Origin: a virus
Length of the DNA: 64,000 nt
Strand: one strand, 5' to 3'
Virus record (IMG/VR): IMGVR_UViG_3300017971_000207
Coordinates: 32,001 to 96,000 of that record
Below are positions 2,232 to 50,109 of this stretch, in pieces; position 1 is the first letter of the stretch; every line of letters starts with the position of its first letter. A model generated the notes under the pieces. It searched no databases. It worked only from the letters and a program-made list of their open reading frames with translations, and was not told where the DNA came from. The position numbers and the translations under genes were made by a program.

Positions 2232-5200
2232 TCAGAAAACGCCGTCTGAGCCCCAGCCTGAGCCACCACGGCCCCATCCAGGCGAGCCCATACCGCCACC
2301 CAAGATCGGTGGGAGCACGTTCGGCTGCTGCCCGACCGGAAGCTGGGCCGCCGGTGGATAAAAGCGACCACTGTCGACGTGCCGGCCCGATAGACGACGC
2401 GCCGCGGCTGCGTGCTGCTGCTCCTCCATCCAGACGTCGGCCGAGGCCATCGCGCCGCGGAGCACAGGGAGCGGCTGCGTGGCCTGATGCTGCGACAGAG
2501 TGTAGATACAGCCCGCCAGGGCATCGCTCGTATCCTTAGAGCCCTTCTTGGGATGATCGACGCGCTGGCGCTTTGCGTCCAGCTCCAGCTCCCGCAGCTC
2601 TTTGAACACCGTAGGGTAACGATAGATGTTAATCCGATCCTCATAAAAAGCCGTCTTGAGCGCCTCGTACGGGTCCATCTTCGTGTCGACCGAGAGATGC
2701 TCCGCCGCATACCCCTTCTGCTTCAGCTGCTGTAACGCGTCGATCGACTGCCATGTATCCTGAGTAACCAGGGTGATAATGAAACCGTGAGCACTAAGCT
2801 CATAGACGAGGCGCCGCAGGTCGCCGAGCACAATCTCGTCCCCCACTGGAGGGACGATGCGCAGAATAACATCGACAAAGTAGATCGGCTGCCGCTCCTG
2901 GAATACCTCCCCGTCCTCCGCACGGCGCAGTACGTCCTTCCAGCCGCTGATATGAGCCATACAGAAGCCCACCGAATCCTTACGATAGGCAGGGTCGATG
3001 TGGATGTGCCGCGCCGCCTTGGGGTTGACAATCGGCGTCAGGGACTCGTGAGTGTAGCCCGAGAAGTCCCGCATCTGCGTCTTACGTACGAGGTTTTCCC
3101 AGATGAACGTCCCCGGCTTGGAGGGGTCGTATACCTCCACGCTGAAGGGATGCTGCCGCGTGTCGTCAAAGACAAGCTTCTCGCGACGCTGAACAAAGGG
3201 GCTAACTGCAACGGTCGACACCCCCGCGATATCTCTTATGCTGCCTTCAAGGTCACGCTCGAAGTCCGACTTGAAGTCGACGGGGACCGCTACCAACGTG
3301 ACGCCGTCAGGCACCCCGTCCCGCTCCAACCTGCTCTCCTCCCCCTCGTCCAGGATACGCGAGGGTATCTGCTCATTACCGCACAGCACATAGAAGCGCT
3401 CGGGGCTAAAGTGGTCCGCGGGCTTTGAATCCCACAGCGCGTAATCTCGGACCATCACCCGCGGGTCCTCCTTAGCTTCCCGAATGCGCCGCGCCGTGAA
3501 GTCATCCGCGGTCTTCTTTGACGAAACGAGGAAGATCTTCCCGAGCACACGGCCGCCCCGGCCGAAGCGGGATTTCATGCGGCGCTTGAGACCGTTGTAG
3601 ATCATCTCCGCGTGGTCCACAGCCCCCATCCGTGGGTCTATCTTGCGCCCCTTGCTAAGGAAGTTGCTGTTGTGAACGAGCACCCCGTCCCCTATGAAGA
3701 CCTCACATCCTGGGACGCAAATGTCGTAGGTAGGGAGCATTCCCAGCCCTCTCTTGGACACGACGCGGGCCACAGTAAACGCTCGTCCCATACCTCGTAT
3801 ACCCACCCCTGACGAGCGCAATACGCCCGTACCGCTCCCATCTTCGCCTTCTCCTTGGGGTTGGATATGTAGCCTCTGGGCTTCACCTCGACGACCAGCG
3901 TGCGGCCGTCGCTCAGCTCGACCACGTAATCCGGCACAGTGTTGCGTCGCTTGTCCTCCCAAAGGTACGGCACCGACAGCTTCTCGTAACGGTAAGCGGC
4001 TACATCCGAACGCCCCTCCAATATCTCCACCGCTCGAAGCTCCCACAGCGAACGAAAGCCCAGCAAACCCGCCTTCGTCGTCTCGACACGGCCTAGATAC
4101 CTCCAATCTCCCTTCTTCAGGCGCCAGACGCTTGACGCCGATATCTTGGCCCGTGTCTCCTCCGAATGCGTGTAGTCCCGAGTGCGGTTGTATTCGATCA
4201 AACGCCGCTTGAACGCTTCCGTATGCATAGGTTTGCCCCGCCGCGCCTCTGACATTTTGCGTCGCGCCTCCGCCGAGGGGCGCCTCCCAGTCGCAGCCTC
4301 TCGCAACCGCTGCTTGTGCTCCTCTGACAGAGGCTTGCCGTAGTTGGGGTTGTCCTCCCCCACCATTGGCGGCGGTGGTCGCAAGTTGCTGTCTCCAGCG
4401 GCCCAACGCTCCTTCATCGCCCGCGACACTTTGGAACGCGCCTCGTCCGACATCACCTTCCCTCGGTTTCCCTCTCCTATCTTGCGCTTGGTCTCCTCCG
4501 TGTGCTTCCAACCAGTCCTCTTCCTCCGCGCCTCCGCCATCTTGCGCTTTGCTTCCGCCGTATGCTTGCGCCCATGAAACGGGTTCTTTGAGCCCGTCCG
4601 CTGCTTGGCTATCTCCGATAAGCGTCTCTTTTGATCCTCCGAAAGCTTCTGACCTTTCCTCGGCATATGTGACAACCTCCTCACCCGGAAGTATATCACG
4701 CATTAACTTGAAGCCTAGAACCCCGTCACGGCCTAGCACAGCCACCGGATGCCTCCACGACGCGCGCAGACGTTGCCCCCCGTCAAGCTCTACCTCAAAG
4801 CACTCCTGGACCGTCGAACGCTTGATATACGCATCAGCCTCCACTGGGCAGCCCCCCTCTACCGACAGCAACCTAAAGGGCAACCGCAGCGGCCCACAAG
4901 ACTCATAAAGAGCCTCCGCAGTGGCCACCCGACCCCCTGGAAGCGACACCAAGGTATCAGCGCACACGCACTCATCCACTAAGGCCCCGAGGGTGTTCAA
5001 ACCCAATGCGGAGGTGTCCGTGGTGGCCCGAGCTGCCAGCCACACGTTGTTGGGGAACCTGAACTCCTTCCGCGTAGCCTTGTACGGGAAGTGCTCCGCA
5101 AAGTAAGGGCTAGCTTTGAGCTTCGTCGCAATGTTCTCAAAGGCGACCTTCATCGCCAGGCCCTCATTGACGCTCAAGCACACGATCGAGATGTCGGTGT

Positions 5201-5642: not shown

Positions 5643-6346
5643 GACGCCTCCGAAGGCTCCGAGTCCACAACCTCGGCCTTGGCCTCAATAACCTCGGGCT
5701 CATCCGCTACACGGGCGAGCTTGCTCGCAAGCCCCAACAGCTTGCGGCGCTTCTCCGGGTTGGCGAGCACCTTAGCTACCTTGGGATCCCCTAGCCGGTC
5801 CTCCACGTGGGCAGTGATGTGGGCCTCGACATCAATCTTCCCCAGCTGCCGCTCATTGAGCCCCAGGTCCATCTTAAGCTGCGCGATGCTTGTCAGGATC
5901 TCGCGGGCCGCCCGTATCTCCTGCGTCATCGACGGGAATAGCTTGTTGATGGTCTTCTCGTTCTCGTACTCAATGCCTATCCGCTCCATCTGGACGGCAT
6001 AAAGCAACCAAAGCTCGTCGAGCTCATCTAGCCCCTCCGCGACACGCAGCGCTGCCTGCTCAAAGCAGAGCGGCATACGCCCCTTGATGAGCTGCGCAGA
6101 GGGAATCGTCGTCCGATAGCGACGCAGCATCGACACCAACCCCTCGCGGCTGGCGTCGGTGTATTCGTGGCGCTCCTCCTGAATGAACTCCGCTATCTTC
6201 CGGTCGCTCCACCCATCAAGGAACAGCTGATGCATCTCATCAAAGCACTTGAGCGCACGGAGCTTCGGGAAGTTGGTAGCGCGCCTGGTCGGCTTAATCT
6301 GAAAAGCCGCTGGCCGACGCTTGCGGCCGTTCTTCTTAGCAGTCAC
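5633..6346 (-). CDS. Putative terminase small subunit
   Basis: Overlaps the terL start; HTH-like GWSDRKIAEFI followed by helical region. Called mainly from position. Confidence 0.6.
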   Translation of the reverse strand: MTAKKNGRKRRPAAFQIKPTRRATNFPKLRALKCFDEMHQLFLDGWSDRKIAEFIQEERHEYTDASREGLVSMLRRYRTTIPSAQLIKGRMPLCFEQAALRVAEGLDELDELWLLYAVQMERIGIEYENEKTINKLFPSMTQEIRAAREILTSIAQLKMDLGLNERQLGKIDVEAHITAHVEDRLGDPKVAKVLANPEKRRKLLGLASKLARVADEPEVIEAKAEVVDSEPSEASCS

Positions 6347-6400
6347 GCCTCCAGCTTATCACGTTCAAACGCGATAGCCTAACCGCGCGAGATCGTTAGG

Positions 6401-6429
6401 TGCCTCGGGCGGGAGTCGAACCCACACCC
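6401..6429 (-). pseudogene. Orphan 3' half of a tRNA (T arm plus acceptor strand CCGAGGC-A)
   Basis: GTGGG TTCGACT CCCGC CCGAGGC A; acceptor strand is exactly complementary to GCCTCGG at 7026..7020. Confidence 0.8.
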
Positions 6430-6439: not shown

Positions 6440-6524
6440 TGCCCAAGCTGGGAATCGAACCCAGACGCCTCTACGAGACAACGGGTTTTAAACCCGTCCC
6501 GACTACCAATTACGGCACTTGGGC
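6440..6524 (-). tRNA. tRNA-Leu(TAA), long variable arm
   Basis: Acceptor GCCCAAG/CTTGGGC, anticodon arm ACGGG TTTAAAA CCCGT, T arm CTGGG TTCGATT CCCAG. Confidence 0.92.
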
Positions 6525-6953
6525 TAGAAACTGCGCGCGAGGACGAGCCCCGCAAGAATAAACCTGCCTTCTCCTACTCCACTTACCAGAGCAAGACTTG
6601 CTACAAAATGGCCCCGCCTTACCCTGCTTCCTATTCGAGCGGACCACACGTGCCGGTTTAGTTCCTTGTCCCCCACACTCAGGACAAGCAAAAACCACAA
6701 GCTCCTCGGACCTCGCATGCTCTCGCGCGTGGTCCCCACGAGAGATAACCTCCAGATTACCCAACGCATTGTTGGCTCTGTTTCCATCCCTGTGATGAAC
6801 ACACTCCCAACTCTCCAGCTTACGGCCCAGATGCGCCTCCATAACCTCCCGATGCTCTAGAACACTACGCTTAGTACCATCCGACAATCTCTCGACCCTC
6901 ATTCGGTACCCCTTCATGTTATACCAACCAGACCTCCACGCAACTTCAACCAT
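6510..6953 (-). CDS. Free-standing HNH endonuclease with C-terminal Cys (Zn-binding) region; start may be ATG 6917
   Basis: EHREVMEAHLGRKL...VHHRDGNRANNALGNL...H; CPEC and FCSKSC motifs. Confidence 0.9.
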   Translation of the reverse strand: MVEVAWRSGWYNMKGYRMRVERLSDGTKRSVLEHREVMEAHLGRKLESWECVHHRDGNRANNALGNLEVISRGDHAREHARSEELVVFACPECGGQGTKPARVVRSNRKQGKAGPFCSKSCSGKWSRRRQVYSCGARPRAQFLAQVP

Positions 6954-7033: not shown

Positions 7034-7108
7034 TGCCCGAGAGAGGATTCGAACCTCCAACCTCGTCGTCCTAAGCGACGCGCCTCTACCTGGTTGGGCT
7101 ACTCGGGC
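7034..7108 (-). tRNA. tRNA-Leu(TAG), short variable loop
   Basis: Acceptor GCCCGAG/CTCGGGC, anticodon arm CGTCG CTTAGGA CGACG, GGTTCGAATCC T loop. Confidence 0.92.
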
Positions 7109-7111: not shown

Positions 7112-7186
7112 TGGTCAGAGGGGGATTCGAACCCCCAACCTTCGGCCCCTCAAGCCGACGCCTCTGCCTAGTTGGGCTACCTGACC
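7112..7186 (-). tRNA. tRNA-Leu(GAG), short variable loop
   Basis: Acceptor GGTCAGG/TCTGACC, anticodon arm TCGGC TTGAGGG GCCGA, T arm GGGGG TTCGAAT CCCCC. Confidence 0.92.
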
Positions 7187-11076: not shown

Positions 11077-14000
11077 TCAATGAGCTGCCCATGACCTGCC
11101 AGTATCTCCCTCAGCGACGCACGGAACTGATCGCATCATCGGCTGAATGCCCTCAATCATCGCCTGCTCCACCTCCAGCTTCACCTGCGCCACGAGCTCC
11201 TCGTCATCGTCACACTCGACCACGATCTCGTCGTGCACCATGTGAACCATCTTGGCCCGAGAGCCGAAGCGCTTCAGGCGGAAGTACACGTTGCGTAGGG
11301 AGCGCTTGAGGCCGTCGGCCCCCGAGCCTTGGATCGGGGTGTTCCCTGTTATGAACACATGCCCACTACGCCGAGCCACGAAGAAGGTATTAGGAACAAT
11401 TGGGCACCATATCCCGAAAACACCCTTGAGCTGCCTCACATGCTTCTTAAGCACCTGCGCCTTGTCGCGGTTGAGCACAGTAACCTGCCAGTGCTCCGTC
11501 CCCTTGGGAACATTCTTAAGCTTGGGCGACCTCGGCCTGTACTTCCGCATATCGCGCTTCTTGATGGAGCCCACGTAACCGCAAAGCGTGCAGAGAATCT
11601 GGAAAACTTCTGCTCCCTCTCGGGAACGGCTGACAAAGGCCGTCTTATCGCTACGCCACCCATCCCCACCGATCATGGTTTGGAGCAGTAGACGACACTG
11701 CCGAGCCGTAAGCAGATTAAGAAGGTCCATGGTCAAAACACGGCCGGGGCAGAGCTGCACCAAAACCTCATTCAGAGGGTGCCGAAAGTACCACATACGC
11801 CCCCCCGCTTCCCCATTCTCGCTCTTCGAGTACCTCATCCCCAATCTACCCAGAAGCGCCTCAATACAAGCCACCTTATAAGGGTTAGCCCGCACACTCT
11901 GATAGAGCTTCAAGGACACCCCACTAGGCTTAGGACCACGCTTTCCGGGACGGTCGTAGACCCTACGGGTCTTCTGAATACCGCCGTCCGTCAACCACCA
12001 ACCAGCAAGCTCCACAAAGTCGTCCGACAGGAGGCTACTCTCGGGCCCTTCGTACCGACCGGTGCGATGGATGCGATCGTCACCATGACGCGAGAGTGTT
12101 GATGTCCGTCGCTCCATGTCCTTTCGGGCGCCCTTGTTGTAGACAAGCCAACGATGGTCCGCTGTGGACACCGCATGAAACGACTTTGACTTGAACTCCG
12201 TAAGCTCCCTCTCCACAGGCTCAAACACCCTTAAGTCCGTAGGAGCCTGCCACTCTAAGGCACCTGTTTTTGGGTTCTTGGTCAGAATCTCGTCGCCCAG
12301 AGCAAGATCCGGCCCTCTGACCCACCCCCGGCGTGTGAGCGCCTCCGTTTCAAAGTCTAGGCAGTTGAAGTACTCATTGCGCGCCGTCTCGGGGTCGAGG
12401 TAGCGCCGACGGCCCCACAGGGTGCGGGCATAGGGGACACGCTTCGCATCACGCAGAGAGCGCTCCTGCCACGCGCGCACGCGCGGGTAGCCGTCAAAGT
12501 AACGCTTGATGAACTTGTTGGCCTGCGCCTCTGTGATCGTCACCCCGTAGTTAGCCTGGGAGTACACGACCAGCTTCGCAGCTCCTAGCCCGTAGATGAG
12601 CCCGAAGTTGACCGGCTTCGCCGCCTGGCGCTGCGCCTTGGTCACCTCATCGTAGGGAACTCCCGCGACGATGCTAGCCGTCCGACGGTGCGCATCCTCC
12701 CCCCGAAGGTAGATACCAATAAGCACAGGGTCCTGCGTCACCTCCGCAGCAAGACGGAGCTCTATCTGTGAGTTATGACTAACAAAGCCGTCGCTGATAT
12801 AGGTCACGGGACCAGGGACCGACAGGTCATAGACATCCTCCTCACCATCAAGCTCTATCGAGTCCACCGCATCGAAGAACGTCCCGTCCTCCACCGTCCG
12901 GCTCAACCCCAGCTCCCGATAAACCTCCGGGTGCTCCTCGCGCAGCTTCACAGCCACCAGAAAGCTGACAGACCGCCCCAGAGACGCCGTGTTGTTGAGC
13001 AATCTCCGTACCTCCCCCTCCAGCCTCAGCTCCCTAACACGCTCCTGCATATTAGGCACAGAGCCCACCGTCGGAGATACGGGACCACGCCCTATCAAGC
13101 CCGACAGCTTCCCCTGCTTGCGCCACGAGAAGAACCCCACAGTCTCCACAAACCTAGAGAGGAACAACCGGGGGACACGCAGCGACCAGCCCACATAACG
13201 ACGCCCCTCCCCATGCCGCTCCTTGCGCCGAGTAGACAACACCCCCAGAGCCAGGAGCAGCTGTTGGACCTCAACAATAAGACGCCTGCGGGAGGAGACC
13301 AGCTTCACGTGGTCCCCCCCAGCACTACCGTCCGCCTCAAAGAGGCCCCGCAAAAAGGCGCCCACCACACGCGGCGGAGAGGACCAAAGAAACCCAGGCA
13401 CAGCCCCCTTTGAAACGCCTAAAGCTACAAACCAGTCGCGAAGCTGCTTGCGATTGACGTGCGTCTCAATGACGCCACGATACTCCTTGACATGTAGATC
13501 ACGAAGCCCGAACAGCTCCTCACACAGCCCCAGCAGACGCTCATGGACCGCCGGGTCCTTAGCGTTTACCACCCACCGAAGATAGTTGGACCCTAGATTC
13601 CCGTCCCCCACAAAGTAACCAACAAAGAAAGCCAAGTCCTCAGAGACCTCCCCAGGAACACGAACCTCCTTGCTGTTGACGCCACCAGAAGGCTTAGGCG
13701 GCAGCACAACCTTCGACGAAGCCTCCGACAAACCCCGGCCGGATTGCACAGCCACGTAGTCCGACGGCCCTATCTCATGTAGACGCTTCCAAACATAGGC
13801 TCCCTCACGGTCAAGGACTCTAATACGGTGAAGAGACGTAGCACGCAGCTCGTAGCCAAGCTTCGTCCGAATCCGATAGACAGACTGGACCCCTTTAGAG
13901 ATACGGTCGCTCACTCGATGCTTCGTCCCGTCCTCCACCAAGACCTCAGCACCTACGGCAACATTCTCCACCGGCACCAAACCCTCCGATGTCGCCACGC

Positions 14001-15951
14001 GCGTCCCCCCCACGACGCAATAGTCGGTAACGATTAGTATTCGGCCATCGCCCGGTCTGAAGCAATCACGGTACTCAAAAGCGCGAGGAATCTGCTGCAG
14101 GTTTGGCGATCGGCTATTATGAGAGAAGACCCCACAAGCCTCATAGCTCTCATCTACGGCGACGGTAATGTCATAGACCTCACGACTTCCGCAAGCGTAG
14201 ACTTCCTCAATTGTAACGTCTTGCTGTCCTTCAGCTGCCTGTAGTGAATAGCCTTGTGGCCTGAGTGAGTCACCAGCGCGAGGTTGTGCAGATCGTTGTT
14301 CTTCGGATCCCCGTCTATGTGATGGACCGTCAAGTGCTCGGGAATCTCCCCCAAGCCCAACGCTTCGGCCATCACCACGCGATGAACGAATCGCCTCTTG
14401 CCATTGTGCAGGCAAGTCAGATACCCATAGCCGTCGTCGCACAACCCCTTCCAGTTGTGGTGTTGCTCCCCCTTCTTGCCCCACATAGGATTCTGCTCCC
14501 CCGTCTTTGATGCCGAGTAACGCAGAGCTGCTAACGCCTTGCGCTCGGCCTCCGGCATACACGATCGTACCACATGCGACACGTTGTGAAACGTAGTCCC
14601 CAGCCTCTCGGCAACCTCTGTAAGCTTCAACATCTCCGGGCTCCGGTACAGTTCCAGAACATCCCGACGATTCTTCGCGTCCCCTGTCCAAGTCTTTGAT
14701 ACACTCATCTACCATACTCCGAACAGACTTCCACTCACCAGTAGAGAGTAGCAATCTGTGGGAGCCCGTGCACTTCAAAACCTCCCCGTTACTAAAACGT
14801 ACCGAATATATCCTCTCGGGTTTAAGCCTCCAATGGTTGATGACGGGCTGCCAACGCTCCTTGTGGGTCCATACCTGGTCACCGACAGAGACATCCTCCA
14901 TCCGCTTCATACCCTCAGTGGTCCGGATAAGTGTCTCCCCCACTACGCAGCTGTATCGGCCAGCTCCAGTTAGCGGCCAGAAGTCCGTATGGATACGACC
15001 CGTCTTCGGATTGATGTTCTCCAGGTAGTCAGGACCGAAGGAGTCGACACGCTTCGATATCTTGCGGTACTCGATGAAGAGCGGGAAGACCTTATGCTTT
15101 GTCGCGATCATCGCAATGAGGTCTGACGCCGTGCTCGTCAGACCAAGATTAAGCGGCTTACCGTTCGGCTTGGTCAGCGAGTTAAAGCTCGCGAGCACCT
15201 GCTGCGGCGAGCGGTAGTTGAAGCCCGAGGGAATGCCCGGCAGGCTCAGCAGCCCCTTCGGATGCGGCAGCATCACATCCAGCTTATTGCGCAGCTCCTC
15301 TAGCTTACGCTTGTTGGCCTCCGCTACCTTGAGCCACATCTCGCTATCCAACCGAAAGCCGTTCAGCTCTATCTCCGCCTCGGCGAGAGGGGCCCCGAAC
15401 TCGATCAAGGCTATACGGTTGAGCCCTGCCTTGGCCAGCTTCGGCTTGAGCGCGTCCCGCAGCTCTAGGAGGTACGTCACATCCTCCGCCGCATAGTCTA
15501 GCTGCTCTTCCCCAAGCTCGGCCGCCGACCAGTCCGACCCTCCCATGTCCCCTGTCCCTGGCTCTACCTTGAGCTCTCGGGCATACAGGTCATAAAGGTT
15601 GTTCCCCAAAAAGCGGCCATTGTGGATAATCGCAGAGGCCCGAAAGGTATCGAACACAGGCCACAATTCAATACCGTGGTGAAAGAGTAGCCACTTCTGC
15701 TCAAACTTCGCGTTCTGGATCACCTTAATGGCGGAGCCCTTCAGCGCCTCCACCAACGGCCCCATAGTGCACGTCTTGAACAGGTCAATGACGTAGATAC
15801 CCTGCCCTGTGTTGAGCTGCAGCAGCCGTATCTTCCCGTCGCGCGGGTCCAAGGAGGTGGTCTCAATGTCGAGACCCACCACCTTGGCGTTGTCGACCTC
15901 GTTGGCTATGGCCCCTAACCGCTCCGCAGAGGTGACGTATTCATAGCTCAT
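11077..15951 (-). CDS. polA: Family A DNA polymerase (3'-5' exonuclease plus polymerase) with three inteins (about 589 aa after splicing)
   Basis: LDIETT, QNAKFE, YAAED, GRYS|SRSPNLQQIP, DY|SQIELR, AKPVNFGLIYG, N|TPIQGSGADG, MVHDEIV. Confidence 0.96.
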   Translation of the reverse strand: MSYEYVTSAERLGAIANEVDNAKVVGLDIETTSLDPRDGKIRLLQLNTGQGIYVIDLFKTCTMGPLVEALKGSAIKVIQNAKFEQKWLLFHHGIELWPVFDTFRASAIIHNGRFLGNNLYDLYARELKVEPGTGDMGGSDWSAAELGEEQLDYAAEDVTYLLELRDALKPKLAKAGLNRIALIEFGAPLAEAEIELNGFRLDSEMWLKVAEANKRKLEELRNKLDVMLPHPKGLLSLPGIPSGFNYRSPQQVLASFNSLTKPNGKPLNLGLTSTASDLIAMIATKHKVFPLFIEYRKISKRVDSFGPDYLENINPKTGRIHTDFWPLTGAGRYSCVVGETLIRTTEGMKRMEDVSVGDQVWTHKERWQPVINHWRLKPERIYSVRFSNGEVLKCTGSHRLLLSTGEWKSVRSMVDECIKDLDRGREESSGCSGTVPEPGDVEAYRGCREAGDYVSQRVACGTIVYAGGRAQGVSSSALLGIKDGGAESYVGQEGGATPQLEGVVRRRLWVSDLPAQWQEAIRSSRGDGRSVGLGGDSRALDGPSHRRGSEEQRSAQPRAGDSLRPQGYSLQAAEGQQDVTIEEVYACGSREVYDITVAVDESYEACGVFSHNSRSPNLQQIPRAFEYRDCFRPGDGRILIVTDYCVVGGTRVATSEGLVPVENVAVGAEVLVEDGTKHRVSDRISKGVQSVYRIRTKLGYELRATSLHRIRVLDREGAYVWKRLHEIGPSDYVAVQSGRGLSEASSKVVLPPKPSGGVNSKEVRVPGEVSEDLAFFVGYFVGDGNLGSNYLRWVVNAKDPAVHERLLGLCEELFGLRDLHVKEYRGVIETHVNRKQLRDWFVALGVSKGAVPGFLWSSPPRVVGAFLRGLFEADGSAGGDHVKLVSSRRRLIVEVQQLLLALGVLSTRRKERHGEGRRYVGWSLRVPRLFLSRFVETVGFFSWRKQGKLSGLIGRGPVSPTVGSVPNMQERVRELRLEGEVRRLLNNTASLGRSVSFLVAVKLREEHPEVYRELGLSRTVEDGTFFDAVDSIELDGEEDVYDLSVPGPVTYISDGFVSHNSQIELRLAAEVTQDPVLIGIYLRGEDAHRRTASIVAGVPYDEVTKAQRQAAKPVNFGLIYGLGAAKLVVYSQANYGVTITEAQANKFIKRYFDGYPRVRAWQERSLRDAKRVPYARTLWGRRRYLDPETARNEYFNCLDFETEALTRRGWVRGPDLALGDEILTKNPKTGALEWQAPTDLRVFEPVERELTEFKSKSFHAVSTADHRWLVYNKGARKDMERRTSTLSRHGDDRIHRTGRYEGPESSLLSDDFVELAGWWLTDGGIQKTRRVYDRPGKRGPKPSGVSLKLYQSVRANPYKVACIEALLGRLGMRYSKSENGEAGGRMWYFRHPLNEVLVQLCPGRVLTMDLLNLLTARQCRLLLQTMIGGDGWRSDKTAFVSRSREGAEVFQILCTLCGYVGSIKKRDMRKYRPRSPKLKNVPKGTEHWQVTVLNRDKAQVLKKHVRQLKGVFGIWCPIVPNTFFVARRSGHVFITGNTPIQGSGADGLKRSLRNVYFRLKRFGSRAKMVHMVHDEIVVECDDDEELVAQVKLEVEQAMIEGIQPMMRSVPCVAEGDTGRSWAAH
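11341..12363 (-). mobile_element. PolA intein 3 (341 aa), LAGLIDADG-type, ends GN
   Basis: FN|CLDFETEALT...LAGWWLTDGG...MIGGDG...FITGN|T. Confidence 0.92.
12772..14019 (-). mobile_element. PolA intein 2 (416 aa), LAGLIDADG
   Basis: DY|CVVGGTRV...FVGYFVGDG...FLRGLFEADG...VSHN|S. Confidence 0.94.
14116..14949 (-). mobile_element. PolA intein 1 (278 aa), no in-frame endonuclease
   Basis: YS|CVVGETLI...CTGSHRL...VYDITV...FSHN|S; low-complexity centre. Confidence 0.93.
14154..14708 (-). CDS. HNH endonuclease (N-terminal HTH-like region) nested in the +1 frame of PolA intein 1
   Basis: GGAG 8 nt before ATG 14708; VHRVVMAEALG...VHHIDGDPKNNDLHNLAL...H...H. Confidence 0.9.
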   Translation of the reverse strand: MSVSKTWTGDAKNRRDVLELYRSPEMLKLTEVAERLGTTFHNVSHVVRSCMPEAERKALAALRYSASKTGEQNPMWGKKGEQHHNWKGLCDDGYGYLTCLHNGKRRFVHRVVMAEALGLGEIPEHLTVHHIDGDPKNNDLHNLALVTHSGHKAIHYRQLKDSKTLQLRKSTLAEVVRSMTLPSP

Positions 15952-17415: not shown

Positions 17416-20400
17416 CTACTCCATCAGAAGGGGCTCGACATACTTCCTGTACATCTCCCCAAGGTTGCGCTCCTCAACCACAAAGTCCTCAATCGGTACC
17501 CCGTTGCAAACATTGATGCCCGCTGCGCGGCACTTCTCAATAATGACCTGCCTGTACGTCTTCCCGTGGTAGGGGTCGGATATGTCAGTGACCGTACCAG
17601 AGCAGGTTATCCGGAGAATGCTCCGAACCGGGATACCGTAGCGGACCGCAGACTCCGTGGTCTTGTTCTGCGCCGACGTCTCAAGGTCGTTTATCGCGCC
17701 CTCGATGTTCAAACGCTCCCGCCAATACATACCATCCTTCGGACCCGACCGTTGCGGCGCCGTTATCCCAAAGTCGTCGCCGATCAGAAAGTAATAATCT
17801 AAGCGGCCGATCTCCCGCGGGTGGATGAGCGCCTGAGCACCTCCTCTCGATGCCCAAGGCATACCCGCGCCGGACCCCGCATTAGACGAAAGCTTCTTCT
17901 TCGTGACGATGTAGTTGAGCGCCTGGTCCGCTCCCCCCGTCTTCGTATCATCGTTCTCAGACGTCGCCCCAACGCGCCCAATACCCTGCGTAGCCCGCTG
18001 ATTCGCGCTGATAATCCCAGCAGTCAGAATCGAGTGCACAAACTCGTAGTTGATGCCCTGCACGGCAAAGCGATAGCCCTGCTCATATAGGCGCTTATAG
18101 CGTCCCTTGTCGACGAAGCAGGTGTAGCCGGGAAACACCTCCTCCTCGACAACCTCGTTCAAGTTAACATCCACGCCCGATGCCGCAATGAACTCCTTGA
18201 TCTTCGCAGGCGTCTTCAGCTCCTTCGGCATCGTCGCCCCGTAATAGCTGTCCGACAGCGCATCTGCCGTCTGAGGTGCGACAGACCAGAGCACCTGCAT
18301 CAGCTTGCGATACTCCTTCTCCTCTGGCGTAGCATTGCGCAGCAGCTCCCCAGACAGACCAGGCTTTACCGCCTCCAGAAGACGCTTCAGCGCCTCGTGA
18401 GGCGTCTCGCCCGCCTTCGGGCGCACGCGTGCCCACACACCACCCTGCCACGCATAGCAACCCTGCTTCATCCAGTAGCCTGGGACCTTAAGCTTGTCGC
18501 CGACCTCTAGGTCCCCTGTGGGCCTGTTGTTCCGTAGGCGTAGCGCCTGCTCCGTCGTGTTGTGCTGGCGCGCAACATACTGCCAAGCAGTAAGCGACAC
18601 CTTGGGGGCGCCCCAGACACCCGCGTTGATAATGTCGGTACCCTCCCGCCCAAAGTCCGACGCCTTAACCTTGTGGTTCTTCTCTTTGATCCGGTCTGCC
18701 TTCGCGATATGAAGCTCCGAGCCCTGGTCCGACCAGTACACAGTAGTGATTGGTTGGCTATGATGCTGTCCAGTCGCCACAAAGGCATCCAAGCTGTCGT
18801 CAAAGTTGTTCGGAGGCGTTGGGGCGGCTGACAGGCGGAAGCTGCCGTCCGTGCCGCCATGCCCCGTAAGCAGCTCTCCCCACACGTTAGGCCGCAGCTT
18901 GAGAGCAAACTCGTAGTAGAGCCCCTGAGTATCTTTCCACTTCCTAACGGTAAGATTGTTGCCCTCGACCGCTGCACCATCCGACTCGAAGCGCACACCA
19001 GAACGCCCGAGGTTCATCTTGTGCACCTCCGCGAGGTCTGCCGCGTTAGCCCTGGCGGGCGGATGGGCAATATCGTCCGGGAAGTACAAAGGTACCGGCG
19101 GGGTCGGACCTACCGGAGACGTCACATTGAACGGCTCGACCGGAACATCCATCTTCACGGAGGCTCCCTCAAAGGCCGCCTTGTCGATTAGAACGTGCGT
19201 GTAGTAGCTGCCCGTTACAAGGCCGTGCGCCGTATCGTACGAGATACCCAGCTCCGTACAGATATCCTTGAGCCGCTGCTTCGGGTCCGGCGCATCATTA
19301 GTGATGCACAGCAGCAGCTTCGACGGCTCGGTGTTGTGCTGCTTGGTCTTGACAGTAACGCCGAGATCACTCCCTTGCTTGGTCAGATACTCGGAGGATG
19401 AGAAGGTCTTCTCAATAACAGAGGGGCCCTCGACGGGCTCGTCAGGCACCTGCCAGCCGCCTGCAAAGGTGAATTGCCCTGTGTCCTTCTTCCCCGTCCG
19501 CTCGCGGTACATGAGCGTGATGAAGGTCTCAAAGTCCCTCCGCAGATCAAGCTTTCGGCGGCGCGCCCGCTGGAGGAACTTGCGCTGCTCCGCCGGCTTG
19601 CCGGGCCAATACGACTCCGCATAGGGGCGCAGCATCTTGATAAACTTCGCCGTGGGGATGGCCTGCAGCTTCATAACGGTTTTCTCGATCCTACTTAGAT
19701 CGAGATCGAAGTCATTATTCCGCCACCCTACCCACAGCTTGTTGTAGACACTCCCAACGTTGTTGGGGTCGTACTTCCCAGTTAGCTCATCCTTACCCAG
19801 GAACAGGTAGCATTGCTCCTTATCGACACCCTGCACCGTGCCGTCCGCCAGACGGATAAACTGCCCCCCATGATTGTCGTTCTGCGACATCAGCCAATCG
19901 ACCACCTGCTCCTGAACGAGGTAAGAGCGGTCTGCCGCCGATAGCTCCGTAGCCGGGTGCTTGTATTGCTGCTCCAAGGTGGGGTTGGTGCTGTCCAGCT
20001 CTACTAGCGGCTGCAGCGTGCCCACGTGGCCGCGAAGCTTGATCACCCCGACGGGGATAGCATCTGGGTTGACCGTCTTGGCCACCTCGTAGAATATCTG
20101 CTGAGCTGCTGCCGCGAAGGGTTTGATCTCCTTGTTCCAACCCTTTGTGATGGCCGGCTTGAACATCCACCGCTTACCGGTCTTCTTATCGGTGTAGATG
20201 TATTTCTCGCCCGCGCCGCCGAGGATGCTCTTGGCGCTCTTCCCCTCGTCTAGGTCCTTCTTCTTAGGCAGCTGCGGCAGCTTCGGCATCGCCAGGACGA
20301 CCTCCTCAGCTGACAGGGAGACCGGCGGCAATGCCGTGGAAGGCCCAGGCTCAGGGAGAACCTCGGGCAGCGGGTAGGTAGCTGTGGGTCCTGGAGGCGG

Positions 20401-42470: not shown

Positions 42471-44014
42471 CTCTTCCCTGTTGCCTCCATGTACCGACGC
42501 TTCAGCTCGGGCGGCGCCGGTGTGGTGGGGTTATCCCTGAACCATTGCTCGTATTCCTCTCGAACCCCTGCTGTATCCTGGTGCTGCTGTGCCCGCGGAG
42601 CGAGCATGTCGATTAGCTTGACCACCAGCCGCAACGATGGCGTCTCCTTGGGGTCGAGCGCCTTACGCTTGAGCACCTCCCGCTGCACCTCCTCCCAGCT
42701 CTCCAACACGTAGCGGAACGTTTGCTCCACCACCGCCAGCGTGTGCCCCTCTAGCAGCTCCCGGCACTGCCCATTCTCCCGCTTACCCCACCGCTTGAAC
42801 TGGATCTTCGGCCACCGCTCCTGCAGCCCCTCAGTCCACACAGCCTTGAGGCGGTCTATCTGCTGACGCTCGCCCAGCGTAACCTTCTTGCCATTCAGGT
42901 TCGCCTGCTTCTGCTGTTTGGCCCGAGAACGCTCTATCTGTTGATCACGCCGCCGCTGAGCTTTCTCCTCCTCCTGCGCGACCGTTGCCCTCATACCGGC
43001 CAGGTCCGCGGACCGCAACGCAGTCCCAGGCGGAATATTCCGCCTACGCTCGGCAAGTGTGAGGTAGGTCGCGACGCTCTTAGGCGTGCGGCCGCGAGTG
43101 CCCGAGAGACCAGAAGGCTCCAGCGCGGTAGGTGCAGGTGTAAGGGGGCGCGCGGAAGTGGAAGGAGGGGGCTCCGAGGGGGAAGAGCGGTGAGGGGGGT
43201 TGGGGGGAGAAGAAGGGGCTAAGGCTTCTGACCTCTCGGACACCTGCTGGTCCCCCCCTTCCCCCTGGGGGGTTAGGGGGGATTTCTGAAATTCTATATC
43301 ATTCTCTACTTCTAACCCTTCTCTATTCACTTGTTCCCTTTTGGGAACACCCCCTGTTCCCTTTTGGGAACACCCCCTGTTCCCTTTTGGGAACACCTGA
43401 ACACTTGTCGAGGTGTCCCCTTTTGGTGACACCCCCCTTGCTTGGCGAGTGATGGCCTCGGACGGGACGAAGCGCCTGATAGCCGCTGCGCTCTCTGCCC
43501 CAGTAAGCCGCTGGAGTGACACCTTGATACGCTGCGCCTCGGACACTGCATCTCCTGCGGTCGTATCCTGCTCATCCCACGTGACCTCTCCATACAGGCG
43601 GCAAGCCTCCTCATCAAGCATGGCACAGACACGTTGAAGCCACGCGTCAGCAAAGAAGACCTCGTGCTCACACCCCTTGCTGTCTTGAACACGCTCGCCG
43701 AGCTGATAGACAGGAACCTGCCCCTCCTCCACCTCTATCAGGTTGATCCACCCCAGCGCCTTCATCCGCTGGATGTATCCGTTCAGCTTCGGACGTCCTA
43801 GCCCCAGCTTGTCTCCCAGCTTCGTTTGCGAGATGCGGGCTACCACCAGCCCTCCCCGGACCATGTCGCGCACTTCTCTATGGCCCGACTTGGTGCTGCG
43901 CCAGGTGAAGCGGCGCAGCATCTCGTAGGCAGTGAAGAGCATGGGGCCGAACACGGGGAGCACCCCCGAGTCGTAGAAGCTGAAGGGCTTCTTGATAAAC
44001 TGATCATCAACCAC
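42467..44014 (-). CDS. Replication initiator (lambda O-like layout)
   Basis: N-terminal wHTH (SQTKLGDKLGLGRPKLNGYIQRMKALGWI), central iteron tract, upstream of the loader and dnaB. Confidence 0.78.
   Translation of the reverse strand: MVDDQFIKKPFSFYDSGVLPVFGPMLFTAYEMLRRFTWRSTKSGHREVRDMVRGGLVVARISQTKLGDKLGLGRPKLNGYIQRMKALGWINLIEVEEGQVPVYQLGERVQDSKGCEHEVFFADAWLQRVCAMLDEEACRLYGEVTWDEQDTTAGDAVSEAQRIKVSLQRLTGAESAAAIRRFVPSEAITRQARGVSPKGDTSTSVQVFPKGNRGCSQKGTGGVPKREQVNREGLEVENDIEFQKSPLTPQGEGGDQQVSERSEALAPSSPPNPPHRSSPSEPPPSTSARPLTPAPTALEPSGLSGTRGRTPKSVATYLTLAERRRNIPPGTALRSADLAGMRATVAQEEEKAQRRRDQQIERSRAKQQKQANLNGKKVTLGERQQIDRLKAVWTEGLQERWPKIQFKRWGKRENGQCRELLEGHTLAVVEQTFRYVLESWEEVQREVLKRKALDPKETPSLRLVVKLIDMLAPRAQQHQDTAGVREEYEQWFRDNPTTPAPPELKRRYMEATGKR
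43282..43437. repeat. Candidate replication origin: palindromic 23-bp iterons plus AT-rich tract
   Basis: TGTTCCCTTTTGGGAACACC at 43332, 43355 and 43378, a degenerate copy at about 43414, and an AT/pyrimidine-rich stretch at 43282..43330. Confidence 0.8.
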
Positions 44015-45338: not shown

Positions 45339-45344
45339 GGACTG

Positions 45345-45659: not shown

Positions 45660-46136
45660 CTAGAAGAGACCGTCCACCTCATCCCCCACCGGGGTTTCTT
45701 CGGCCTCTGTGATCTTTGCAGGTGTACCCCTCACCCGCATCATAACGGCTGGGGATAGCTGAACGTAATAAACCGGGAGTTCTGCAGGAGCGCCCGTGTG
45801 AGATTCGAAGAGATGGCGGACTGCCCCTCTGAAGCAGCGGCCGCAGTAGGGACCACCGAGCCGTCCTTGGGGGTCGGCACCTACGCCACCGCTCAACCCT
45901 ACCCATAGTAAGCGCTTAGGGTCGAGGGTCCGGCAGGTCTTACAGCGGACGGAGACAACTGGGGCGTTCGTGCGCATAACGCCCCGCATGTCCTGGTAGA
46001 TCGCTGCCACCAGCTCAGGATGAGCCCGCCACTGCTTAAGGTTCACCTTCCCGACCAGCGACCCCAGCCGAACATCGAGCCTCTTCCCACAGTCGTCGCA
46101 TACCCCTTTCGGGCCTGTGTAAAGCGTCTGTGGCAT
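45660..46136 (-). CDS. Cys-rich hypothetical protein
   Basis: Three CxxC motifs; GGAGG SD. Confidence 0.6.
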   Translation of the reverse strand: MPQTLYTGPKGVCDDCGKRLDVRLGSLVGKVNLKQWRAHPELVAAIYQDMRGVMRTNAPVVSVRCKTCRTLDPKRLLWVGLSGGVGADPQGRLGGPYCGRCFRGAVRHLFESHTGAPAELPVYYVQLSPAVMMRVRGTPAKITEAEETPVGDEVDGLF

Positions 46137-46138
46137 TA

Positions 46139-48064
46139 CTACCTCCGGCGCAGGAACTGGATAAAGCTGGACGAGACCAGCTGGACGAGGTCGGAGCCTA
46201 TGCGCTCAGCTCGAACTCGCCGCCAAAAGCGCTGCGGCCCAAACATATAGGACAGCTGAGACGGCTCTAGGTCAAAGCGCGTAGGGAAACCGGGCCCCAT
46301 CCGAGACCCGAGGAGAATGCCAGTAACGCCGATCCCCTGAGCCCGTGCCTGCTGCACCTCTTTGCGAACAAAGCGCATTAGCTGAGGAGTGCCGAACGTC
46401 TTCCCGTCACGCCGTCGATGGGTAGGGAACCCATCAGTGACTATGAAGATATGCTTGACCTCGGTTCCACAGCGCAGCTCCTTAACGGCCAGCCGTATAG
46501 CAACGTGGAGCGGGGTACCACCCCCGGCCCCCTTGTCCCCCATCGAGAGCACAGCATCCTTGTGGGAATCATAGCGGGTGATGGTTATCTGGCCAGGCTC
46601 CTGAGAGGAGAAGCCCCAAACCAGACTCTCTACGAAGGGGAAGCGCAGCGCTCGGTTGAGGATGTTGTAGGCAGAGCGGCACTGAATCGTTTTGCTGTGA
46701 CCCATAGAGCTGGAGCGGTCTAGAAGAAGGATGGACCGAAAGCCTTGCCCCCTAGCCTCCGAGCGAAAGCAAGGGACCGGCACACCTGTTACGTGGCGCT
46801 CCAGATAGGCGCCAACGTCCACCCTCGTCCCGCTCTCCTCTAGCGCCGAGGCACGTCGCCCCAGCACGCGGTAAAACTGGGCCCGCAGGCGCCGAATGGT
46901 TCGGCGTTCGTCGGGGTACACGTTCACCGAACCTTCGCGATCGTGGTCAATGAAGGTGACCTTCGCCATGGCGTCCTTCTGTAGCCACGCATCGCGACGA
47001 ACAACCTGCTTCATCTCCTGCAGGACCTGTGCAATCAGGTCCTGCATGCGGTCCTCAGACCGCGCTAGCTCCGCGTCAAACACATCACCGTCACCAACCG
47101 GAGCACACAGAGCTTTAGAGGCCAGAGCCTGCGACCGCGGAGATGTCCGAGACCGGACATAGCTCGACTCGCGCATCAGGCCCTCCAGGGCCTCCGGAGC
47201 GTCGCCGCTGTCTGCTAGAACTCTTGATAGGGCCTGCGCCCTCTCACGGCCAGAGACGGCCTGCGGGGCCTCGGGGTGCCACGGCTGCTGCTCCCCACTT
47301 TCCGCGCTGGCGCTCTCGTCCTCCTTACCGTCTGATGATCCCTCCTCATTGTCCCCGTCTCCCCTCTGCGGACAGGAGGGAGGGGGCTCGCCGCGGGTCT
47401 CACGGATTATCTGATTCACCAGCTGCACGACCAGCCACTTGCTCACCATCAAGGTGGCAGTAAAGTCGCGACCACACACCTTTCGGAACGCCTCCAGTAT
47501 GTATGGCTCGAAGCAGTCTAGGTCCCCAGGCGCCACGCCCTCTGGGTCCCCGCTCAGGCAGGTTACGTAGGAGAGCAGGCCCTCATGGGCCTCGGGCAAT
47601 ATCTCCGCGACAGCCTCACGATCGAGGTCTCTGATGATATCTCTGCTCCCGGCGTATAGCAGTCCCCACAGGGAGAGCACCCGGCGTCGCTCCAGCTGCG
47701 CGATGATATGTCCTAGCAGCTGGCGAACATCCTCCAAGGCAATGGGGACTCCCAGCTTTTCTCCTACCTTCTGCACCTTCTCGGTGTAGGTCTCCACGAA
47801 GAGGCGGGCGGCTTGAGGGTCGCTCTTGAAAAGAATATGCGCTAACTGCAGCTCAACCAGCCGGTAAAAGCTGGAGTGGAAGAAGGGCGCTCTTATCTCG
47901 TGGCCGTCCGTCCCCGGCACGTCGGCGTGGCGCAGCCACAGCTTGCGTTTGGTAATACCCGCAAACATGTCCACGGTCTTGTAGGCCACTGAGCGGGTGG
48001 TCTCATATGCTCGGAGAGCCTCCCGACGCTCTGGAGATAATTCGGCGGCAGCGTCCGGGGTCAT
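46139..48064 (-). CDS. vWA-domain protein (CobT-like partner of MoxR)
   Basis: MIDAS motif LLLDRSSSMG...GGTP...IVTDG. Confidence 0.88.
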   Translation of the reverse strand: MTPDAAAELSPERREALRAYETTRSVAYKTVDMFAGITKRKLWLRHADVPGTDGHEIRAPFFHSSFYRLVELQLAHILFKSDPQAARLFVETYTEKVQKVGEKLGVPIALEDVRQLLGHIIAQLERRRVLSLWGLLYAGSRDIIRDLDREAVAEILPEAHEGLLSYVTCLSGDPEGVAPGDLDCFEPYILEAFRKVCGRDFTATLMVSKWLVVQLVNQIIRETRGEPPPSCPQRGDGDNEEGSSDGKEDESASAESGEQQPWHPEAPQAVSGRERAQALSRVLADSGDAPEALEGLMRESSYVRSRTSPRSQALASKALCAPVGDGDVFDAELARSEDRMQDLIAQVLQEMKQVVRRDAWLQKDAMAKVTFIDHDREGSVNVYPDERRTIRRLRAQFYRVLGRRASALEESGTRVDVGAYLERHVTGVPVPCFRSEARGQGFRSILLLDRSSSMGHSKTIQCRSAYNILNRALRFPFVESLVWGFSSQEPGQITITRYDSHKDAVLSMGDKGAGGGTPLHVAIRLAVKELRCGTEVKHIFIVTDGFPTHRRRDGKTFGTPQLMRFVRKEVQQARAQGIGVTGILLGSRMGPGFPTRFDLEPSQLSYMFGPQRFWRRVRAERIGSDLVQLVSSSFIQFLRRR

Positions 48065-50109
48065 CTCTTCTTCCCGTTGAGGTCTACCTTGAATATCGAG
48101 GTGATGCGCTCCCGGACCGTGGCTTTGTCTGTCCCCTCGAACTTACCGACGACGATGCGCAGCGCGCGGGTTAGGTCCAGAGCTGCAATATCCTCCAGAA
48201 GCTGCACGACATCACGAGGGCTGAGGGCATAGTCCAAGGAAGCCTGGCGAGTCTCGTGCGCGAGCGTCATAACCTGCTTGACCACCTCTTTTCGAACGCC
48301 CCCGTTGAGCACAGCATCCAAGATCTTCTTCTCGCTGGTGGGATTGGGGTAGTCGACCGAGATAACCCTAAAACGAGACTTCAGATCCTCATTGAGCGCG
48401 TACACGCCGCCGTATACCGCCGTGTTCATTGTCCCGGTAACCCACAGCTCCTTACCGGGCTGCAGCTTAAACACCTTCTGCGCCTCGGGCACCTCCACCC
48501 GGCAACGCCAATCTGCTACCGCGTTAAGGATCTTCTGGCTCTGGGGTGAAAGCGAGTTATGCGTACCAAGCCCGTTGGCAAAGTATGTATGAGTCCCCGT
48601 GAGACCTATCTCTCGTAAGGGTGTTGGGGTCCTGTTGACTACCACTCTTTGTACAGTTACCCATCGAGGAACGTCCTCACCGCCCGACGTATTAGGTCTG
48701 GGCTTTTCAGATCCTCTTCCGATAGTCTCAACACTGTATAGCCCATGCTGGTGTAGGCTGCCGTCTCTGCCTCGCGCTGCTCTTTCGGGTGCCAGTAAGC
48801 CCCATCTACCAGCAGTACCTTCTTTCCCCTGGCAATGAAGTCGGGATTGAGGTGCCTCCCATCGGGGGTCGTCAACCATCTGCTGCCGTCGCCGACATAG
48901 TGAACCGGAAGACCTTCTAGGATGCTCATAGCCTTCCGCTCCAGTGCTGTGGGAAGCTCCGCATTCCACCCCGCATGTACAAACTGTATCTTGGCCTCGG
49001 GGTGCGCCTTCAGGTACGCCTTCCGCTTCGCCGACATATTCTGCCTGTGTGCGGGGTCGGACCATATTCTCTGAGCGCGTTCCGAGGCCAAGGCGCGACC
49101 TTTGGGACTCCGCCAAAACGCTGCGGTGGCTTGGCCACCTCGTGCTGCAGCCTCGCGGAACTCGGGGGACCGACAAACTGCCAAACGTTTGGCCCGCCTC
49201 TCCTCGTCGGCCCACTCTTTCTTCATCTGTCGCCTTTTGGTAGCAGCCATCTTTGCCCGCGTGGTTGGGTCCTCGTGCGGGCGCAAATTTCTCAGGAAGG
49301 CTGACATGCCCTCGCGGTACTCTTTGTCCTTCCACCTTTCGCGCATAGCCCTGGAGCGTTTTGCGCGAGCCTCCGGCGTCCTCGCCTTTGCTTGGACGTC
49401 CGGGCGACGTCCCGGATTGTCTCCGTGCGCCATACGTTCGTGAGCTCTTAAGGCCCGCAGGTCCCTCTTCACGCAGCCGCAAGTTTTGCAGGTGTAAGAT
49501 TCGGTCGCCTTCGCGGATGTCTTCGGCATAGGACCAACCTCGTGCGGTCCAAAAAAGGTGGTTACCGCTAGCAGTTATCCTACGCTCACCACAATCTAGT
49601 GTAAAGGAGGTGTTAGCCCATTCATCTCGGACCTCTACCACCGTCTCGATGCCTTGTTGACCAGAGGGTCCGAAGCTCACCACAGCGTCTCCCACCTGGA
49701 CGCGTTCTATAGGCACTTGGAGACCCGAAGGCAGCATTACGTTGGAGGATGGGTGTATGCAATTGATCTCCTCTAGGCAGAGGATACAGCGGCCAACCTC
49801 ATTGGCCACCTCGAAGGCGTTGGTTATGGGCCCTAGAACAAAAGGGGTCGAGCCCCCTCGGATGATGTGCATCCCCAGCAGATGAGAGCGCCGCACATCC
49901 TCTGAGCAGTCAAAGGTGATGATCGGGCTCCGTACCTTGTTAGCGTAGTGCTGGATGGAGAGTGTTTTCCCTACCCCCTTCGGACCACACACAATTGCGG
50001 GTGCCCGAAAGGCTAGCCCATCATACAGAGGGAGCAGGTCCAGGGCGTCGATGTAGGTAACCTGCTTCGGAGCGAAGCTGTCTGCGGGCAAACTTAGAAT
50101 ATCGCTCAT
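48061..50109 (-). CDS. MoxR/CobS-family AAA+ ATPase with intein (about 280 aa after splicing)
   Basis: GPKGVGKT, LEEIN|S, TMN...YGG...LNEDLKSRF, SPR. Confidence 0.9.
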   Translation of the reverse strand: MSDILSLPADSFAPKQVTYIDALDLLPLYDGLAFRAPAIVCGPKGVGKTLSIQHYANKVRSPIITFDCSEDVRRSHLLGMHIIRGGSTPFVLGPITNAFEVANEVGRCILCLEEINCIHPSSNVMLPSGLQVPIERVQVGDAVVSFGPSGQQGIETVVEVRDEWANTSFTLDCGERRITASGNHLFWTARGWSYAEDIREGDRILHLQNLRLREEGPAGLKSSRTYGARRQSGTSPGRPSKGEDAGGSRKTLQGYARKVEGQRVPRGHVSLPEKFAPARGPNHAGKDGCYQKATDEERVGRRGEAGQTFGSLSVPRVPRGCSTRWPSHRSVLAESQRSRLGLGTRSENMVRPRTQAEYVGEAEGVPEGAPRGQDTVCTCGVECGASHSTGAEGYEHPRRSSGSLCRRRQQMVDDPRWEAPQSRLHCQGKEGTAGRWGLLAPERAARGRDGSLHQHGLYSVETIGRGSEKPRPNTSGGEDVPRWVTVQRVVVNRTPTPLREIGLTGTHTYFANGLGTHNSLSPQSQKILNAVADWRCRVEVPEAQKVFKLQPGKELWVTGTMNTAVYGGVYALNEDLKSRFRVISVDYPNPTSEKKILDAVLNGGVRKEVVKQVMTLAHETRQASLDYALSPRDVVQLLEDIAALDLTRALRIVVGKFEGTDKATVRERITSIFKVDLNGKKR
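48556..49761 (-). mobile_element. MoxR intein (402 aa), no in-frame endonuclease
   Basis: IN|CIHPSSNV...ASGNHLFWT...HTYFANGLGTHN|S; low-complexity centre. Confidence 0.92.
48657..49529 (-). CDS. Vsr/DUF559-like endonuclease with C2H2 finger and basic helical repeats, nested in the +1 frame of the MoxR intein
   Basis: GAGGT 7 nt before ATG 49529; CKTC...H....H; PTALE...NPDF...VDGAYWH...GYTVLRLSE. Confidence 0.88.
   Translation of the reverse strand: MPKTSAKATESYTCKTCGCVKRDLRALRAHERMAHGDNPGRRPDVQAKARTPEARAKRSRAMRERWKDKEYREGMSAFLRNLRPHEDPTTRAKMAATKRRQMKKEWADEERRAKRLAVCRSPEFREAAARGGQATAAFWRSPKGRALASERAQRIWSDPAHRQNMSAKRKAYLKAHPEAKIQFVHAGWNAELPTALERKAMSILEGLPVHYVGDGSRWLTTPDGRHLNPDFIARGKKVLLVDGAYWHPKEQREAETAAYTSMGYTVLRLSEEDLKSPDLIRRAVRTFLDG

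Follow-up and report, generated by a model that had tools for sequence, protein, structure and literature searches.

The window analysed in this study is the whole 64,000-nucleotide stretch of DNA corresponding to bases 32001–96000 of the IMG/VR record IMGVR_UViG_3300017971_000207, a 145-kb linear virus sequence with an estimated completeness of 64%. Its GC content is about 60%, and nearly all of its long genes lie on the minus strand. Three of the genes, encoding the terminase large subunit (TerL), a family A DNA polymerase (PolA), and a MoxR-like AAA+ ATPase, contain an intein whose DNA also includes a second, nested open reading frame (ORF) for a nuclease. Coordinate arithmetic and a frame test placed all three nested ORFs in the +1 frame of the same strand. 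An earlier note on this DNA had described the inteins as possessing intact splicing ends, a centre devoid of nuclease motifs, and a full nuclease gene with its own Shine-Dalgarno (SD) sequence in the +1 frame, and our analyses bore out this description. The initial cysteine (Cys1), block B, and the terminal His-Asn|Ser were found at the positions given; the intein middles, rich in G, R, S, E, and A in the host frame, matched no family; and SD-like sites were located 9–15 nt 5' of each nested ATG. The nested ORFs were likewise confirmed and submitted to Pfam and PHROGs searches, in which the third gave only a sub-threshold Pfam match. All the features of these three genes given below are on the minus strand.

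The TerL precursor (2232..5642, 1136 residues) was delineated from its ORF and translation, and its C-extein is at most 37% identical to the annotated terminase large subunits in the phage collection. Its intein (3669..4970, 434 residues in the host frame) follows the Walker B sequence LVDE and exhibits Cys1, block B SWRH, and the C-terminal VHN|S. The nested ORF (3692..4666, 324 residues) encodes NUMOD3 repeats (PF07460, 1.3e-21, 76.6 bits against a cut-off of 20.4) together with a TnsA-like PD-(D/E)XK nuclease domain (Tn7_TnsA-like_N, PF08722, 6.4e-9, 36.7 bits, cut-off 26.5), and the same domain pair occurs in its homologs P0157–P0171. The final 30 or so codons of the nested ORF overlap blocks F and G of the intein. 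The SD-like AGGAGG (4676..4681) is made by the intein codons G-E-E-V; in all six members of the TerL group, an SD-like GAGG arises at a comparable distance from the conserved intein codons G-[D/E]-E-V.

The PolA precursor (11077..15951, 1624 residues; DNA_pol_A, 1.8e-62) contains several inteins, and its Pfam matches also include DNA_pol_A_exo1, Intein_splicing, and LAGLIDADG_3. Intein 1 (14116..14949, 278 residues) is inserted at GRYS|SRSPNLQQIP with Cys1, block B TGSH, and HN|S, and Hint_2 was matched at residues 335–372 of the precursor. In an AlphaFold2 model of the host-frame intein, built with four relatives, residues 1–90 and 244–278 form a confident β-rich domain, while residues 93–243 show no confident structure, with a pLDDT (predicted local distance difference test) score of about 20–27. 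A Foldseek search with the structured part retrieved the gp41-1, MchDnaB-1, and NpuDnaE inteins with target template-modelling (TM) scores of 0.74–0.76. Because the structured part matches mini-inteins and residues 93–243 have low pLDDT, the host frame is modelled as a HINT domain plus a linker of about 150 residues without predicted structure, located where an endonuclease domain usually resides. The nested ORF (14154..14708, 184 residues) encodes a helix-turn-helix (HTH) and an HNH domain of the I-PfoP3I/phiL7 P45 type (HNH_3, 2.2e-12, 46.9 bits, cut-off 24.8; phrog_7545 'HNH endonuclease', 3.8e-21). A TAG codon in the nested frame directly precedes its ATG, which all five PolA members share at the homologous position; the SD-like sequence is GGAG (14717..14720).

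The MoxR-like ATPase precursor (48061..50109, 682 residues; AAA_5, 2.3e-10) carries an intein (48556..49761, 402 residues) after the Walker B sequence LEEIN, with Cys1, block B SGNH, and the C-terminal THN|S. Its nested ORF (48657..49529, 290 residues) is preceded by an SD-like GAGG (49538..49541), and an identical GAGG is present at −12 in the relative L029. The encoded protein has a C2H2-type zinc finger at its N-terminus and a Vsr/EDxHD-like domain at its C-terminus, with helical repeats between the two. Pfam gave a sub-threshold match to DUF559 (0.0036, 17.6 bits, cut-off 20.6), and PHROGs a match to phrog_22215. The protein search found 955 relatives; no tblastn match was obtained among 50,697 phage records. 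In the AlphaFold2 model (mean pLDDT 82.8), a zinc-finger-like start is followed by a long array of helices and, at the C-terminus, an α/β domain. The best match of the nuclease domain in the PDB is the catalytic domain of I-Bth0305I (3r3p), with a target TM score of 0.68 and a borderline E of 1.3e-3, followed by Vsr (1cw0 and 1vsr); phmmer against 3r3p gave an E of 0.27. On this model, the protein may work like a Vsr/EDxHD nuclease, a borderline assignment, and we do not file it as a member of the family because the scores of the structure matches are borderline. A homolog of this nuclease is found in frame at residues 578–731 of P0022 (896 residues, from the representative library), a QueC/amidotransferase protein with an intein, and the family therefore exists both as an overlapping gene and as a fused domain.

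The three nested genes encode three different catalytic domains with no cross-similarity beyond NUMOD3-like repeats, in agreement with the proposal of the earlier note that nucleases invaded mini-inteins three separate times. We also considered whether the TerL and MoxR elements, both situated at a Walker B motif, represent one lineage that switched exteins. BLAST revealed only generic HINT similarity and NUMOD3-like repeats between them, and the idea is therefore not supported.

Stop avoidance in the host frame

Each of the three inteins comprises a whole number of codons, is in frame with its exteins, and is free of stop codons throughout in the host frame, as had been claimed; the third frame contains 20–21 stops per intein. 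When the synonymous codons of the nested ORFs were permuted, 8.0–11.7 host-frame stops were expected, and the probability of an open frame was at most 5e-5 (at most 1 in 20,000 shuffles). A host-frame stop requires a nested codon ending in T followed by a codon beginning with AA, AG, or GA. T-ending codons in such stop-creating contexts numbered 0 of 94, 0 of 50, and 0 of 84 in the TerL, PolA, and MoxR nested ORFs, respectively, compared with 18–24% elsewhere. The host frame is thus open beyond chance, and T is avoided at the third positions concerned.

The earlier note had attributed the shared +1 offset to G/C-ending codons that leave this frame nearly free of stops. This explanation held only in part. 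Both alternative frames of the long ORFs contain about 4 stops per 100 codons genome-wide, and the +1 frame is therefore not nearly stop-free. The genetic code nevertheless implies that, for every host-frame stop, a synonymous T-to-C change in the nuclease gene would suffice to remove it. T at the third position must be actively avoided because 7–12 stops are expected across each nested ORF.

As a control, we examined a phosphatidylserine decarboxylase gene outside the window (G000:C1:139278-140567, plus strand; L040:1279-2568), in which the +1 frame is open for 278 codons. The +1 ORF (L040:1550-2371, 273 residues) is rich in R, S, T, and P and has no Pfam match. Synonymous permutation gave about 4 expected stops and a P of about 0.0008. 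There is no intein in this gene, and the openness is compatible with chance over about 180 frame tests; on the scale of the genome, it is probably a chance occurrence.

Relatives in other metagenomes and the frame under constraint

Relatives were sought by scanning IMG/VR with the three nested proteins and by protein searches of other metagenomes, after which the contigs were retrieved. The IMG/VR scans yielded contigs with proteins 51–58% identical to the nested proteins. Thirteen contigs (L004, L018–L021, L026, L029–L031, and L033–L036) were examined, giving 16 sequences together with those of the window. In all 13, the nuclease ORF is situated in the +1 frame of a longer homologous TerL, PolA, or MoxR-like ORF, and the intein occupies the same extein position, starts with Cys, retains block B, and ends with HN|S/T/C. 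The TerL site is occupied in L004 and L033–L036, and the MoxR-like site in L026 and L029–L031. None of the 13 contigs, one of which has a GC content of 46%, possesses a stop-creating T at a third position, compared with 7–12 stops expected. The 16 nested ORFs are all intact at pairwise identities of 27–62%, and the core residues of the PD-(D/E)XK, HNH, and Vsr-like domains are kept in the alignments. SD-like sites precede the start in 11 of the 16 members, and in most members an in-frame stop lies 0–15 codons upstream of the start. Of three inteins apparently contained in the related TerL precursor of L004 (L004:756-6137, plus strand), the one near the P-loop is LAGLIDADG-like, that at Walker B is the dual-coding element, and the third, farther downstream, has an in-frame HNH-like motif and NUMOD-like repeats.

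Each group was aligned in three segments, the N-terminal splicing region, the middle, and the last 36 codons, and the proportions of nonsynonymous and synonymous differences were compared as the ratio pN/pS. In the splicing ends, the differences peak at position 3 of the host codons, and pN/pS is 0.43–0.62 in the host frame versus 0.90–1.23 in the other frame. In the middle, the peak moves to position 3 of the nested codons; the amino acid identity is 0.39–0.50 in the nested frame versus 0.21–0.28 in the host frame, and pN/pS, given here as uncorrected proportions with compressed contrasts, is 0.48–0.61 versus 1.08–1.40. The direction is alike in all three groups. Judged from these alignments, constraint switches frame, resting on the host frame in the splicing ends and on the nested frame in the middle. 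This is the pattern predicted in the earlier note, namely a constrained +1 frame and mere stop avoidance in frame 0. Together with the same nesting in 13 contigs, the switch agrees with its picture of nuclease genes lying on a junk loop whose host frame is only kept free of stops.

In the public gene calls of L029, L030, L031, and L033–L036, the nested ORF is kept, and the TerL or MoxR gene is either broken up or lacks a call for its N-terminal half. Because gene callers take the nested ORF and fragment TerL or MoxR, dual-coding inteins and their hosts are systematically mis-annotated in public metagenomes.

The HNH lineage at the polymerase motif and the rest of the window

Among the PolA members, the exteins are only 19–31% identical, the inteins 45–55%, and the nested HNH proteins 40–53%. 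Because the inteins and HNHs are more similar than the exteins, the intein and its HNH gene have moved horizontally as a unit between distant polymerases. The N-terminal parts of the polymerase precursors of L019 and L020 resemble, by eye, a uracil-DNA-glycosylase-type domain, a candidate assignment that illustrates how unlike the host polymerases of one intein and HNH unit are.

The nested HNH protein is also 34–40% identical, over most of its length, to HNH proteins whose genes interrupt the family A polymerase genes of isolated phages. A tblastn search retrieved ORF13 of Pf-WMP3 (34%, E 2e-12) and P45 of phiL7 (36%, E 1e-18), as well as matches in PhAPEC7 and BF25/12. I-PfoP3I of Pf-WMP3 has been shown biochemically to be a nicking enzyme and resides in a self-splicing group I intron (PMC3428280). 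In six phage loci with a related HNH gene, the interruption always falls within or directly after an RLSSxxPNLQNIP-type motif. The upstream polymerase parts end in RLSSSKP, RLSGSRP, RLSSSNPNL (twice), RLSASEP, or RLSSSSPNLQNISN; in five of the six loci, the downstream part restarts at the motif's (N)xQxxP half, whereas Vibrio phage MJW has its break behind the entire motif. The intein site, after GRxS, lies 2–7 codons upstream of the interruptions in the phage loci, the intron of Pf-WMP3 being located 4 codons downstream of the intein site. Rfam detected no group I intron in five phage loci with related HNH genes, and the status of intron or split gene was taken from PMC3428280 for Pf-WMP3 and from the annotation of the depositors for PhAPEC7.

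In a phylogenetic tree, all five HNHs borne by inteins group in a single clade to the exclusion of the others (100/99 support), and because of this clade, the tree fits a single capture of the HNH gene followed by its spread. We tentatively propose, with somewhat less than even confidence, that an I-PfoP3I-like HNH lineage has specialised on the DNA coding for RLSSxxPNLQNIP. A group I intron, a gene split, and the overprinting of an intein loop would be its vehicles there, and the intein and HNH would then have spread jointly among polymerases of about 20–30% identity.

A free-standing ORF in the window (6510-6953, minus strand, 147 residues) has an HNH core with 40% identity over 58 residues to the nested PolA HNH (E 2.4e-4). 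This similarity is too distant for it to be regarded as the donor of the nested gene.

Inteins abound in this genome. The polymerase, a ribonucleotide reductase, a helicase, RecA, DnaB, and another ORF gave Pfam matches to Intein_splicing, Hint, and LAGLIDADG domains; inteins with an in-frame LAGLIDADG endonuclease are present in these same proteins. Pfam revealed no further hidden nuclease in nine other nested or antisense ORFs of the window, examples being 18507-18998, 43327-43692, and 61747-62106. The first of these is a 163-residue +1-frame ORF on the minus strand inside a 2523-residue ORF (17416-24987); neither of the two has a Pfam match, and there is no sign of an intein. Three tRNA genes (6440-6524, 7034-7108, and 7112-7186, minus strand) are located between the terminase and polymerase regions. 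A DNA search with the TerL gene gave no match in the 50,697 phage records, which therefore include no close relative.

Mechanism, alternatives, and known systems

We consider it highly probable that the three elements are working mini-type inteins with a complete homing-endonuclease gene overprinted in the +1 frame on the loop, that the free nuclease is made from an internal start, and that the unit homes as a whole. Ribosomes translating the host gene would read the nuclease stretch as a long unstructured linker, which selection would hold free of stops and protein splicing would remove. Other ribosomes would initiate at the internal SD and ATG just past the N-terminal splicing region and produce the free nuclease. 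During co-infection, the nuclease would cut intein-less alleles of the host gene, and repair would copy the intein and the nuclease gene together. Splicing competence is suggested by the intact motifs and by the essential nature of the host sites (Walker B of TerL and the PolA motif), and we infer from the sequences both the independent translation of the nuclease and its specificity for the empty site. A putative activity of the HNH protein is to nick the polymerase gene close to where the element is inserted; it shares with I-PfoP3I the location in the RLSSxxPNLQNIP motif.

Some observations weigh against this interpretation. The synonymous sites are near saturation, and standard dN/dS is biased for overlapping genes. 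L019, L021, L026, and L031 have no obvious SD, and the nested frame of L030 is open for 103 codons upstream of the chosen start. Within both the TerL and the MoxR group, exteins and inteins show about the same identity, recent mobility being seen only in the TerL pair L035/L036. This last point would suit the idea that the nested ORFs are decaying relics, unexpressed or useless, and that the element is a mini-intein with a long junk linker, since the TerL and MoxR inteins then diverge about like their exteins, as under vertical descent; the Pfam scores of P0004, which lie below threshold only, point the same way. The intactness of all 16 nested ORFs at such low identities, the peak of substitutions at the nested third position with pN/pS about half that of the host frame, and the conserved nuclease core residues argue the opposite, and we regard decay as very unlikely. 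A comparably slim chance is given to programmed +1 ribosomal frameshifting, which would produce a fusion of the N-extein, the N-terminal part of the intein, and the nuclease in place of internal initiation. It would account for the +1 offset in 16 of 16 sequences and for L026, L030, and L031, in which there is no clear SD or the nested frame is open well upstream of the first plausible start. It is difficult to reconcile with the TAG directly before the PolA nested ATG, the upstream in-frame stops in most members, the conservation of this ATG in all five PolA members, and the SD-like sites in 11 of 16; a shared slippery motif was not noticed, though no search for one was made.

The other two alternatives carry almost no weight. 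The record is an uncultivated IMG/VR contig, and paired compensating indels in the assembly, an objection that the earlier note had itself raised, might have displaced an ordinary in-frame endonuclease domain. Such errors are effectively refuted, because 13 contigs that stem from different samples and were built with different assemblers (JGI, ENA, and Logan) show the same nesting. Moreover, the nested frames run into stops both shortly upstream of their starts and ahead of the C-terminal splicing block, and a host frame that was never read would gain nothing from avoiding stops. The remaining idea, also of negligible probability, is that the nuclease gene lies in a group I intron, which would be excised from the transcript of the intein coding sequence, as might be supposed from the fact that the closest characterised HNH relatives, I-PfoP3I and phiL7 P45, are intron-encoded. 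Rfam found no group I intron in the window at the gathering threshold, its sole matches there being the three tRNA genes, and removal of RNA would leave the selection against host-frame stops across the whole ORF unexplained.

The overprinted-intein arrangement as such is not new, and its general layout has already been published; the earlier note had mentioned alternate-frame nucleases in phage inteins, and descriptions of the layout are indeed given in Gosselin et al. (2025) as well as in Phillips et al. (2026). In actinophage inteins, LAGLIDADG and Vsr-like genes in antisense orientation and endonuclease VII-like genes on the same strand in frame 3 have been reported, and invasion by free-standing endonuclease genes has been proposed (Gosselin, Arsenault & Gogarten, bioRxiv 10.1101/2025.01.02.630785). 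The present inteins resemble them in the intact splicing ends, the endonuclease ORF in another frame between the splicing blocks, the open host frame, and the occurrence in TerL and DNA polymerase. They differ in that all three nested genes are same-strand and +1, that the nucleases are of the HNH, NUMOD3 plus TnsA-like, and zinc finger plus Vsr/EDxHD-like types, that one host is a MoxR-like ATPase, and that the 50,697 phage records include no close relative of this phage. In the cyanobacterial dnaX intein, a LAGLIDADG ORF lies in the +2 frame, and over the overlap the endonuclease frame shows a low omega and the host frame a raised one (Phillips, DeSimone & Gogarten, bioRxiv 10.64898/2026.09.14.751524). 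According to that preprint, the out-of-frame dnaX endonuclease was first proposed by Gorbalenya in 1998. The same-strand overlapping ORF, the frame-dependent selection, and the proposed secondary invasion of a mini-intein are shared with our elements. The dnaX intein is, however, cellular, and its authors did not identify the source of its endonuclease; the elements described here are from a phage and in the +1 frame, and include an HNH with non-intein relatives at the same motif.

The I-PfoP3I-type HNHs (PMC3428280) share with the nested PolA ORF the HTH and C-terminal HNH, 34–40% identity, and the same polymerase motif. They are found in a group I intron or between split polymerase halves without coding overlap, whereas the HNH gene of the window is overprinted on an intein loop. 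In ShiLan, an out-of-frame HNH is hidden within a phage's DNA methylase gene without an intein (Arsenault et al. 2025, PMC11855218). This insertion is likewise an out-of-frame HNH in a stop-free host ORF, but no splicing domain is detectable in it, whereas the full intein ends in our elements should make the extra peptide removable. What is new in the present cases is the occurrence in such a layout of an I-PfoP3I-like HNH gene, a NUMOD3 plus TnsA-like gene, and a Vsr/EDxHD-like gene on the same strand, together with a MoxR-like ATPase as a host and three independent cases in one genome. The quantitative signature of stop avoidance and the link between intein-borne and intron-borne nucleases at the same target motif are also new.

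Surveys that look for in-frame endonuclease domains alone would score dual-coding inteins as mini-inteins. The connection between the nested HNH and I-PfoP3I raises the possibility that a single nuclease lineage serves both RNA-level and protein-level splicing elements at one target. If the proposed specialisation of this lineage is true, the target preference of the nuclease, and not the splicing element, would decide where such elements live, and the PolA unit would be a concrete example of the assembly of a mobile intein in the order 'splicing element first, nuclease later'. More generally, the overlaps support the view that mobile inteins consist of a splicing domain and a later-arriving nuclease, and suggest that a whole free-standing nuclease gene, once hosted within an intein, can make it mobile without fusion, at the sole cost of keeping one reading frame free of stops.

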